In this document: positions 18,347 to 34,700 of the stretch, piece by piece
Layout: every line of letters begins with the position of its first letter
Numbering within the stretch: the first letter of the stretch is position 1
From: Eledone cirrhosa
Lineage: Eukaryota
Direction of reading: 5' to 3'
Assembly (NCBI GenBank): GCA_964016885.1
Contig: OZ024751.1
Location: 31,000,001 to 31,064,000, forward strand
DNA: 64,000 nucleotides
Position numbers and translations under genes: made by a program
Notes under the pieces: model-generated
The model's database searches: none
What the model saw: the letters and a program-made list of their open reading frames with translations, nothing else
Told to the model about the DNA's origin: nothing

Positions 18347-19457
18347 ACTAAATAGAAATGAAAAAGCTTCAGTAGAGGGAGGGAGGCCAAGAAAGACCTT
18401 GGTGAAGTGGAGGTTGTCAGAGCTGATCTCGAATCACTGAAACTCATAGAGGATTGGATAAAACGGCTGCAATAAGTGGAGAAATGATAGAGATGATGTT
18501 ATAATATAGAAGAAATAAGTGCCAAAATAGAACTATTAATCATCATCATTGTTTAGTGTCTGCTGTCCTTGCTTGCAAGTGTTGTACTCAAAGCAAAAGT
18601 ACTAACTCCACTATAAAATGGAGGTGTCTCATTATATAGAAAATATCTATTGAAAACTACAACACAACATTTTATGATTCATAATTAATTGAGCATTTTT
18701 ATTACACACATATACATACATAAACACACACACACACACATACATATATATATATGTATACACACACAACATAAACAGATATATAAATATATATATATAT
18801 ATATATATGAATGTGTTCGAAAGAATGAGCGAAATTTGAAATTTATGAGAAAGAAGCTTCAAATTATTTTACTGTAGAAAAATAGTCTAAATAATAGGGG
18901 ATATAAGTCACTTTAACAGAGAAAATGGACATTAGTTGATGTTCATTTTATATGTTAAGGGGGCTTAAAAAATTGGATAGTGCCTCTAGCTTTCTCATAA
19001 ATGTGTGTGTGGGTATGTATATATGTAAGTATGCATATATGTGAGTAAATGTGTGTACATACATATACATATATATATATATGTACATATATGTATATAT
19101 ATGTACATATATGTATATATATGTACATATATTTATATATATATATATATATATATATATATATATATATATATATAGGGAGTGATGTTATTTTGGAAAT
19201 TATCAAATTCGTTGTTGCACGAATACATGAATTAATAGCTCCGGTTTAGCCCAATCAACAGTCAATCAATAGGTTTGTTCTCAAAGTGGCCACTAATCGA
19301 TTTTATAAGGTTTGTAAACAGAGTGCATAGACAGTGTCTAGAGTTTAAACACAGAATAACAACAGTATATATACTGAGGAAAAGCAGATGTGTGTGTGTA
19401 TATATATATAGTATTCAAAATATTAATAAATGAAGCCATTCACATAATAAATATATG

Positions 19458-19519
19458 TTTTATTATATATATTTCGAAGGTACTGTGCTGTTTTTTCAGT
19501 ACGTCCTCGTCAGATAAAA
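19458..19519 (-). ncRNA. Type I minimal hammerhead ribozyme motif (left arm of palindrome 1)
   Basis: Reverse-complement copy with core CTGACGA (fits CUGANGA) and the same stems. Confidence 0.75.
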
Positions 19520-31700: not shown

Positions 31701-34700
31701 TCAATGCTAAAGGGTTAAATATGGTGACACTAACAACTTCTTACCTCTGTATGTTGGTTCACCAACAAATTTTCCCAGATTAACAGAAAGTGTATTATGT
31801 CGTATAGGTTGAGCTGGAGCAGACTGTCTCCCTGAACAGAAAGAAAAATACATCTATGTTGAAGAAGGTGTAGTTGAGAGACATGTTTAAATACTGAGGG
31901 GTGTCACAGCTAAGACAACAGATCACACACTGGCATAGAAACCAAGGGTTCAATGGTTTGTGTATGCATAAACCATATCGAGATACAATATATATATATA
32001 TATATATATATAAGTAGCAAACGAGCCAGTCATTGCCGGCACACCATTCACCACTGTAAATAAAGACCCTCCCCTCCCTCATTCCTCAACATTGTGGTTT
32101 TCAAATGGCCCCAGACCATGCTTTAGGGGAGAGCAAGATTTAAACTATATGTTGACATGCTCCGGGAGCTAAACAACCTATGTATCAAATTTGAACGAAA
32201 TCGGATGGAAACTGTGGAAATGTATAGACTGCATACACAGACAGATGTTTAGCTCTGATTTATCTGAATTATTGAGCCCTCTGCCGCTCATATCGAATTT
32301 TGTTTATCGTGAACTCGTGCGCCGATTTTTCGATACTCGATTATTCTACTATATATATATATATATATATATATTAAAATATAAGTATTAATAAAATAGA
32401 TGTTCATTTGATCAATTACATTTTATTATACATATTTCGGATGTACAACAGTACGTCCTCATCAGACAAAATATAATGATACATGACATACCCTGAGATG
32501 TTAAATGGTTAATCACTACCTTGATTAAATCTTAACCATTTAACATCTCAGGGTATGTCATGTATCATTATATTTTGTCTGATGAGGACGTACTGTTGTA
32601 CATCCGAAATATGTATAATAAAATGTAATTGATCAAATGAACATCTATTTTATTAATATTTATATTTTAATATTAATAACTCCTGAAAATTATTTTCCAT
32701 TGAGTGCTTCCAATCTACTGTAAAACTCATTGTTTGACATAATCATCGAATATTGTTTAACAACTTAATACTTTATATATATATATATATATATATATAT
32801 ATAAAGAGCAGGGACAAGGTATAAATATAACTTCATTATGTTTATTCACACAAAATGCACATTTCACGATCAATCAAAATTCGGGTCCGGCTACTTTGAG
32901 CGTCAAAGTAGCCGGACCCGAATTTTAGCATTGAGTGGTCAAACTGGTGAACCATCAGTAACTAAACATTACACACTAATACACTATATATATACACACA
33001 TATATATATATATATATATATATATATATATATATATGTGTGTATGTATATATTATATATATATGTGTATGTATATATTATATATATATGTGTATGTATA
33101 TCATCATCATCATCATCATCATCATCAGGTTTAGCGTCCGTGTTCCACGCTTGCATGGGTTTGGACGGGGGTTTTCCCACTTGAGGCAAGAGTGGTTGTC
33201 TTGCTCGCATAGGACTGTCTGGCGGGTTTTCTACAGTTGGATGCCCTTCCTAACACCAACCACATTTACAGTGTGGGGCTGGGAGGTTTTTACCGTATAT
33301 ATTATATATATATTTTACCGTATATATTATATATATATGTGTATGTATATATTATATATATATGTGTATGTATATATTATATATATATGTGTATGTATAT
33401 ATTATATGATATATATGTATATATTATATGATATATATGTATGTATATATTATATGATATATATGTATGTATGTATGTATATATTATAGTATATATATAT
33501 GTATGTATGTATATATTATAGTATATATGTATGTATATATTATAGTATGTATGTATGTATGTATATATTATAGTATATATGTATGTATGTATATATTATA
33601 TGATATATATATGTATGTATGTATATATTATATGATATATATATATATACAGGGTGCGGACGATATTTGTTCGCAAGATTACTGTCTAGGAAAAAATAAC
33701 ACAGTAGTTTTATTTTTTAAGATATATTTATCAAACTTGGGTCAGTTTGTCTCCATGACTTGTTCTTTCGATCTCACTCGATAAACCCACCATTGGCTTT
33801 GATAACGGCTTCAAGGCGGCCTCGGAACCGGCTACAGGCCTTCGTTACTGTCCCCCGACTTAGGCCCCTAAGTCACTTGTGATCCTGGCCTTCAGATCGT
33901 TTTTCGTATTGCAGCTAGATCTGTTGGTGTCTCGTTCCACTGCGCCCCACACAAAGAAGTCGGGGTTGCAGTCAGGAGAGCTGGGAGGCCAGATGTCAGG
34001 TGAAGTGTGGTCGACAAAGTTCTGTGACAGCCAGATTTGGGTCGTTCGGCTGGTATGACAGGGCGCTGAGTCTTGCTGCCACACGTACGGCCTACCTGCA
34101 ACTACCTGGTCGATCCAGGGCTTTACTACCTCACTCAGAACGCGGATGTAGCCATCGGTGTTCAGCTTGAGGCCCTCAGGGAAGAAGTGAGGTGGCATGA
34201 CATAACCTTGACTGCTGACGACACCTAAGACCAATGTTGTCGCTGGAAACTTTGTCTGCATGACTCTGGGCACGTCTTTGGATGAGACAGCGAGCCACCT
34301 GTTGTTCTGGGAGTTGATCTTCGGGTCCTTATTTGTCCTCCTGGCGCAGATTCCAAGAAGAACTCTGTGTCTCTTCCACAAATTTTGAGGTTCAAAATTA
34401 TTCATAATCAATTATTCTGAAAATAAATAATGGAAATATAGTCACTGTTTTTATGAAGACAAGAGTGACAACGGAAGTAAAAAAAAATTTGCATAAAATT
34501 AGCAGTTGAAAATTGCGAACAAATATCGTCCTCACCCTGTATGTATGTATATATTATATGATATATATATATATATGTATGTATTTATTATATGATATAT
34601 ATATACATATATATATATATATATATCATCATTATCATCGTCGCTAGCATCATCTTCCACGCTAGTATTGGTTTAGACGGGAATTGTCCCACGTGAGGCA

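Follow-up and report, generated by a model that had tools for sequence, protein, structure and literature searches.

In a 64,000-nucleotide (nt) stretch of the Eledone cirrhosa genome (GenBank assembly GCA_964016885.1, contig OZ024751.1, forward-strand positions 31,000,001 to 31,064,000; hereafter the window, numbered from its first letter), we analysed two palindromes, copies 1 and 2, each of which carries a minimal hammerhead ribozyme motif in either arm. The palindromes are probably dead, stub-sized insertions into TA microsatellites that were copied from a Penelope-like retroelement (PLE), specifically from RNA of its hammerhead-bearing pseudo-long terminal repeat (pLTR), with the mirror arm made anew each time. 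The feature is real and behaves like a PLE insertion; as a feature it is ordinary, with each of its parts already in print for PLEs, and its value is mechanistic.

As delimited by self-BLAST of the window, the palindrome of copy 1 spans 19412-19756 with arms 92.8% identical, and that of copy 2 spans 32374-32670 with arms 94.7% identical. The two copies are 65.6% alike across 442 columns (E 2e-35), and 179/237 aligned positions are identical between their direct arms, bearing out the view of an initial annotation of this DNA that they are mirror-image repeats with a common architecture. The one-sided extension, put at ~80 nt in that annotation, was indeed found and is 86 nt long in the first copy and 100 nt in the second; this tail is present on one side only in both copies, so that the element ends are asymmetric. 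The proposed (TA)n flanks stand insofar as TA runs lie on both sides of both copies, although the left flank of copy 1 is merely a short (TG)5(TA)5 tract. With long arrays excluded, about 4% of the window is no more than 15 nt away from a (TA)5 run, and TA-rich runs occur at 4/4 element ends. Furthermore, the inverted arm ends at the equivalent site of the same AT-rich stem-loop in both copies. An inverted copy at the 5′ side with a variable junction, an optional one-sided tail and two 3′ ends, as characteristic of endonuclease-containing (EN+) PLEs, were all found. The TA-rich microsatellite of 6 kb that abuts the copy 1 tail (19841-25896) shows a strong strand skew, with GC skew up to 0.96.

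Hammerhead cores were located at 19654 and 32579 on the plus strand and at 19513 and 32465 on the minus strand, that is, one per arm and on opposite strands within each element. The motifs and the cleavage sites predicted after 19704 and 32617 are thus where the initial annotation had placed them, as examined with a descriptor. Each core consists of a helix I of 6-8 bp, CUGANGA, helix II, GAAA, a self-complementary 8-mer and a UA site, and the determinants of type I hammerheads (core CUGANGA, GAAA, UH, helices I and II) are present in the motifs. The palindromic 6-nt helix III described previously is self-complementary in each motif, although the 6-mer of copy 2, UAUGUA, is so only via G-U pairs; the helix III 8-mers were predicted to form self-duplexes at −3.2, −2.2 and −6.5 kcal/mol, which would permit dimers. 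A generic descriptor matched 6 sites in the window, compared with 1 in 30 block-shuffled windows combined (0.03 per shuffle). A third relative (39907-39979, minus strand) is like copies 1 and 2 in the hammerhead motif only, with helices II and III kept by compensatory changes. Across 4 distinct rows of the motif alignment, 67/68 cells are paired, and 3 pairs are changed on both sides (two in helix II, and the helix III centre, which is UA, UG or CG), which is consistent with structural constraint on a Penelope-type minimal hammerhead, albeit in 3 lineages only. Two variants seen in public reads, 32577 G>A in helix I and 32605 C>T in helix II, are compatible with the pairing, and a covariance model built from the 5 motifs recovered no window site beyond those 5 (next best E 0.47). 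In the source elements the hammerhead was likely conserved, and its activity there would depend on dimer formation or on a protein; in the stubs it is likely a passenger.

Two further motifs were noted in the window. One, at 41061-41131 on the plus strand, is a different type I hammerhead motif of the monomer type, with a full 5-bp helix III, a 6-bp helix I and a 4-bp helix II, and has no Rfam match; it is part of a repeat, and further copies of the repeat's flanks, at 12198-12339 and 12965-13311, gave no descriptor match. The other, at 57947-57975 on the plus strand, has CUGAUGA, a 7-bp helix II and GAAA, whereas helices I and III were not found by the descriptor, and is possibly a decayed hammerhead.

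To what extent these motifs could act was considered by RNA folding. The whole-element transcript was predicted to form a single long hairpin (−252 or −230 kcal/mol) in which all tested core bases are paired and six base pairs examined in helices I and II have a probability of 0.00. The two ribozymes of one element would be unable to cooperate in cis, because they lie on opposite strands and no single transcript has both in sense; the idea that they act together is therefore not supported, the full-palindrome transcript burying both cores in the predicted hairpin. On the other hand, in a transcript modelled from the copy 2 centre, helices I and II are predicted to form with probabilities of 0.78-0.94 (≤0.18 for the copy 1 equivalent). 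When two molecules were folded together, copy 2 adopted the dimer hammerhead and the third relative formed helices I and III, whereas copy 1 did neither.

We next describe the family in public reads, for which 4 of 12 public runs were compared with 32371-32770 (copy 2) at 80% likeness. Matches comprised 1630 contigs in run X1 and 2079 reads in run X10 (organism A), and 4 and 7 contigs in organisms B and D, respectively, numbers that are evidence of many copies and not a copy number; the family is accordingly multi-copy, as the initial annotation had supposed. Its junctions with (TA)n were likewise confirmed at two ends. The short end, 32673, is joined to TA runs in 141 reads of X10, 16 contigs of X1 and 1 contig of X4 (organism B), and the long end, behind ~32761, in 210 reads of X10. 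Position 32673 is the mirror of the copy 2 left end and lies at the 3′-strand start of the AT-rich stem-loop. Note that X10 read ends at 32414, 32627, 32630 and 32667 were set aside as presumed restriction sites of a restriction site-associated DNA (RAD) library. In addition, a subfamily has, at 32586-32605, a longer helix II and loop that are more like those of copy 1 than those of copy 2 (seen as a loose end behind 32598 in 132 reads).

The reads also contain sequence that the palindromes lack. Since 191 reads continue upstream of 32507 into non-palindromic sequence, reaching up to 163 nt as loose ends, the source must extend beyond the arm and is non-palindromic there. With centres that vary as well, the view of the palindrome as the family unit is not supported, and the palindrome is probably not the mobile unit. 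Of the 4 upstream loose ends listed for 32507-32509, 3 have TATAAAT precisely 31 nt ahead of A32515 of TCACT; these two motifs may be a TATA-like box and an initiator (Inr)-like site of a putative promoter. A donor-like GTATGT follows the Inr-like site by 38 nt in copy 2 and 32 nt in copy 1, with no shared acceptor established. The TATA-like box is absent from the stubs, and these are probably dead.

The inversion centres were examined in all 18 distinct joints listed (36 ends), and the inversion points differ widely among them; a contig of organism D has its centre at yet another position (loose end behind 32506). Joint ends fall at 32515-32517, around the predicted RNA start, in 5/36 cases (P 6e-5 for this window of positions, 5e-3 over all such windows). 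None of the 36 ends lies at the predicted cleavage site, which the copies cross intact, so that the "ribozyme-based" mobility proposed initially is doubtful. In 5 of the 18 joints, the inverted arm is linked directly to the final 40-70 nt of the tail; because of this linkage, the inverted arm in these joints is not a fold-back copy of the direct arm. Most joints overall are supported by one contig or few reads.

These observations would be accounted for most simply as follows. The element's GIY-YIG nuclease would nick both strands of the (TA)n target. One nick would prime reverse transcription at an outer start site on the RNA, where the tail ends; the second would prime it further in, at an inner start site that lies 86-100 nt upstream within the AT-rich stem-loop. 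The two cDNAs would then extend toward the RNA 5′ end, predicted at ~32515-32517, and their 3′ ends would be joined by short microhomologies, which would leave two arms head to head and a tail on one side. As template, an uncleaved RNA retaining the donor-like site would have been used. Tentatively, we further suggest that such stubs may be the main by-product of Penelope retrotransposition. In this view, each strand of a single (TA)n target would prime one cDNA, at two fixed sites on the RNA, both cDNAs would extend as far as the capped 5′ end and be joined at that point, and the palindrome centre might thus mark the transcription start.

Support for the two-primer route comes from an anole PLE, for which in vitro work reported cleavage of both strands, two internal reverse transcriptase (RT) starts bounding the tail, initiation at a stem-loop and dispensability of hammerhead cleavage (PMC11167929); the two family ends at (TA)n parallel that element, in which the tail is optional and reverse transcription begins at two internal sites. 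Similarly, the stubs are like PLE insertions with an inverted pLTR and tail (PMC3846280, PMC8557442, PMC11167929) in the head-to-head inverted copy, the junction palindrome or overlap, the one-sided tail, AT-rich targets, the stem-loop start site and the uncleaved template. They differ from the insertions described there in having no open reading frame (ORF) between the repeats, a tail of 86-100 nt instead of 30-40, and a centre near the predicted transcript start. The TATA box of Adineta Pen2a is ~20 bp from TCACT (PMC3846280), and the Penelope of D. virilis has an intron 46 nt after the start (PMC2377424), an order of start, intron and hammerhead that the stubs would share, provided that their donor-like site has the role of a donor. 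Among other EN+ PLEs, Hydra-clade elements combine (TA)n insertion with canonical hammerheads, Neptune has a microsatellite bias and cephalopod Naiads prefer (TA)n (PMC8557442). Naiads are described in that source as lacking canonical hammerheads.

The hammerhead motif itself also has counterparts. Minimal hammerhead ribozymes (min-HHRs) in the pLTRs of metazoan PLEs occur singly for the most part, in association with truncated PLEs (Cervera and De la Pena 2014, PMC4209133), and in Schistosoma, pairs occur 100-700 bp apart on opposite strands (PMC4209133). The stub motifs are like these min-HHRs in the type I core, the long helix II closed by G-C and the palindromic helix III suited to dimers, and unlike them in that there is no unpaired base between A9 and G10.1 and that a C-C or C-A mismatch is conserved at the fourth helix II pair. 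Their 8-nt palindromic helix III is nearer to the small-helix-III variants of flies, rotifers and shrimps in the same paper. Published min-HHRs cleave weakly or only with protein, as far as reported in these sources. By these analogies, the hammerhead stubs likely belong to the Penelope group, with no RT or GIY-YIG partner found in the window, and the stubs are not expected to carry an ORF for either. In the published record, pLTR inversion, the tail, insertion into (TA)n and the minimal hammerhead are each represented; what is new is the long tail and the centres near the predicted transcript start.

Several results weigh against the PLE origin or the two-primer route. No GIY-YIG match was obtained in 260/260 window frames of at least 55 amino acids, using Pfam, which may miss PLE nucleases, and no related locus was present among 31 pattern-scan loci from public collections (1 viral, 30 metagenome contigs). 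These 31 loci were treated as chance, none having a BLAST match to the element or the complete set of helices seen in the family. The tails exceed the published length of 30-40 bp by a factor of 2-3. Two further clusters of joint ends exist, at 32571-32575 (6/36), a self-complementary AT 4-mer, and at 32606-32608 (5/36), mostly where the subfamily has a different, longer loop II, and clustering alone is therefore not proof. The copy 2 direct arm begins at 32513 or earlier, slightly upstream of the 32515-32517 cluster. Later deletion within unstable palindromes could have produced the joints of inverted arm to tail, most of which are supported by 1 contig or 3-6 reads. The copy 1 arm has no hammerhead fold in the minimum-energy model, either as monomer or as dimer. 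Covariation equal to that observed was reached by 13-17 of 500 shuffles and rests on 3 lineages, and conservation of the core among genomic copies was not significant (0/12 core positions among the 29 variable direct-arm sites listed, P 0.24). Finally, Rfam, to which the initial annotation had looked for confirmation, gave no hammerhead family at E≤10 on 19400-19850, 32365-32780, 19640-19720 or 32560-32640, and no hammerhead was among the matches listed (150 of 268) in a whole-window scan. Rfam equally misses the motif at 41067, which has the full helix III, and its best matches on copy 2 are sub-threshold plant microRNA hairpins.

A second route from the same Penelope-type origin is self-priming. 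Here the first cDNA, or an antisense template, would snap back to give the mirror arm, and resolution by a nuclease at the stem-loop would account for the one-sided tail. Self-priming is the interpretation in PMC3846280, and nuclease resolution of the tail that in PMC8557442. The route accords with copy 2, whose arms are identical at all but a single internal position, have a minority allele in common (T32638 and its mirror A32406, most reads having the other base) and overlap via a 6-nt microhomology inside a native short hairpin. However, one RNA or one source locus could likewise account for the shared allele, and the inverted arm contains sequence absent from the direct arm in the 5 joints to the tail. 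In copy 1, where both arms reach ~19589 and a 10-nt insert repeats the inverted-arm end, differences between the arms crowd the centre (7/51 nearest positions vs 3/116 next, Fisher p 0.01), which fits two templates better than decay. Given also the two internal RT starts and both-strand cleavage shown in vitro for one PLE, we regard self-priming as unlikely.

It is considerably less likely still that the palindrome with its tail is a self-propagating non-autonomous element, resembling a miniature inverted-repeat transposable element (MITE) or a retrozyme, with ribozymes that process its RNA. Such an element could explain why two diverged copies have a common layout and similarly placed centres and why the family is multi-copy, and retrozymes have been argued to be PLE derivatives (bioRxiv 10.64898/2026.07.22.740005). 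Against this, the centres vary, many copies are non-palindromic at that point, the ends do not mirror each other, no TATA-like box occurs in the stubs, the tested helix I and II pairs are predicted not to form in the whole-element transcript, and retrozymes are head-to-tail tandems. The stubs are indeed like animal non-LTR retrozymes (PMC7229834; bioRxiv 10.64898/2026.07.22.740005) in being non-coding, AT-rich, equipped with a type I hammerhead and probably moved by PLE proteins, whereas those retrozymes are head-to-tail tandems that were originally defined by canonical hammerheads and circular RNAs, and the stubs are head-to-head single units with a minimal motif. The stubs do not fit non-LTR retrozymes, no tandem array of head-to-tail hammerhead units being present at either locus; a tandem source may exist elsewhere. 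Nor do they fit MITEs or foldback DNA transposons, the one-sided tail and variable centres differing from symmetric terminal inverted repeats and a fixed structure.

That the palindromes arose as fold-back artefacts of assembly or library preparation, or that AT-rich DNA matched the hammerhead motif by chance, is scarcely credible: no listed contig spans the whole element, Rfam has no match and the monomer folding z-scores are weak (−1.2, −2.0, 0.0), but the copy 1 arms differ at 10 positions and a gap, the inversion joints are present in independent runs, the descriptor sites far outnumber those in shuffled windows, and the core and its pairs are kept in three diverged lineages.

Searches for relatives gave the following. 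Three RVT_1 fragments in the window (35417-35887, 14046-14309 and 14524-14796) are unlinked to the elements, and the first of these presumably belongs to a long interspersed nuclear element (LINE)-type sequence, judging from its motif. Six family motifs were not found as such in one supplementary file of PMC8557442, apart from one chance match inside an ORF. Among titles and abstract openings, a scope outside which most subscription papers and the repeat databases lie, no publication described this family or tied inversion centres to the transcript start. The coordinates of all parts of the elements are summarized in Table 1.

Table 1. Parts of the two palindromic stubs, their flanks and the solo relative in the window.
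Feature	Position	Strand	Basis
Copy 1 left flank, short (TG)n(TA)n	19390-19409		sequence
Copy 1 inverted arm, without tail	19412-19578	−	alignment
Minimal hammerhead motif, copy 1 inverted arm	19458-19519	−	descriptor
Copy 1 junction, repeats 7 nt of inverted-arm end	19579-19588		sequence
Copy 1 direct arm, starting ~3 nt before Inr-like site 19590-19594 (aligns with copy 2 Inr-like site)	19589-19756	+	putative promoter role
Donor-like GTATGT, copy 1 direct arm	19624	+	putative donor role
Minimal hammerhead motif, copy 1 direct arm, predicted cleavage after 19704	19648-19710	+	descriptor
AT-rich stem-loop, copy 1; inverted arm ends where its 3′ strand starts	19739-19766	+	fold
Copy 1 tail, 86 nt	19757-19842	+	alignment
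TA-rich microsatellite, 6 kb, right flank of copy 1	19841-25896		repeat scan
Copy 2 left flank, (TA)12.5	32350-32374		repeat scan
Copy 2 inverted arm, mirror of 32532-32673	32371-32512	−	alignment
Minimal hammerhead motif, copy 2 inverted arm	32421-32471	−	descriptor
Copy 2 junction microhomology, 6 nt: inverted-arm end and native upstream family sequence	32507-32512		reads and alignment
Copy 2 direct arm, opening with Inr-like TCACT (A32515, predicted RNA start)	32513-32673	+	putative role
Donor-like GTATGT, copy 2 direct arm	32553	+	putative role
Minimal hammerhead motif, copy 2 direct arm, predicted cleavage after 32617	32573-32623	+	descriptor
AT-rich stem-loop, copy 2, containing family short end 32673	32650-32679	+	reads and fold
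Copy 2 tail, 100 nt, terminating at family long end	32674-32773	+	reads and alignment
Copy 2 right flank, (TA)15	32774-32803		repeat scan
Third, solo relative, not palindromic: hammerhead layout 39907-39979, ~60 unrelated nt, TA-rich run	39845-39979	−	descriptor and alignment

Another PLE-like insertion was noted at 38865-39560, consisting of an inverted partial tandem (period ~400 nt, no Pfam match) and a direct arm, with two ends ~47 nt apart, TA runs on both sides and a templated 10-nt insert at the junction. A canonical hammerhead was not found in it by the descriptor; on its minus strand at ~39030-39070, a core-like CUGAUGA...GAAA stands after a donor-like GTAAGC, with two octamer motifs nearby. 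The palindrome at 39250-39540 has no significant relation to copies 1 and 2 (scores 31 and 25 vs shuffle maxima of 36 and 34). More hairpins or inverted pairs without a hammerhead core lie at 32870-32934, 27943-28009, 40734-40855, 36440-36844 and 25896-26172, and two copies of a DDE_3 (Tc1/mariner-like) transposon fragment (33652-34537 and 49748-50634) are 95% identical in opposite orientation.

As a whole, the window is rich in AT, of animal type, and includes exons of SAXO, PWWP and CHD5-like proteins. A 336-codon exon-like frame at 28771-29778 on the minus strand matches SAXO1/2 (E 4e-23), and, in the direction of that strand, copy 2 is located 2.6 kb upstream of the frame, which may place it within an intron or in the 5′ flank. 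Fragments matching PWWP and CHD5-like (Get1) proteins are found at 8275-8451 (plus strand) and 63556-63837 (minus strand), respectively, and a 331-codon open frame at 3788-4780 (plus strand) has no Pfam match.

The route by which PLEs acquire inverted repeats and tails is still open according to PMC8557442 and PMC3846280. With an abundant family that has two sharp ends and variable centres, junction counting can separate the rival PLE insertion routes. For annotation, such hairpins are not to be filed as MITEs or microRNA precursors, and their read-through transcripts would give double-stranded RNA hairpins of ~140-170 bp. If the palindrome centre does mark the transcription start, the thousands of genomic stubs would be a data set ready to decide how inverted pLTRs form, by two primers or by self-priming.

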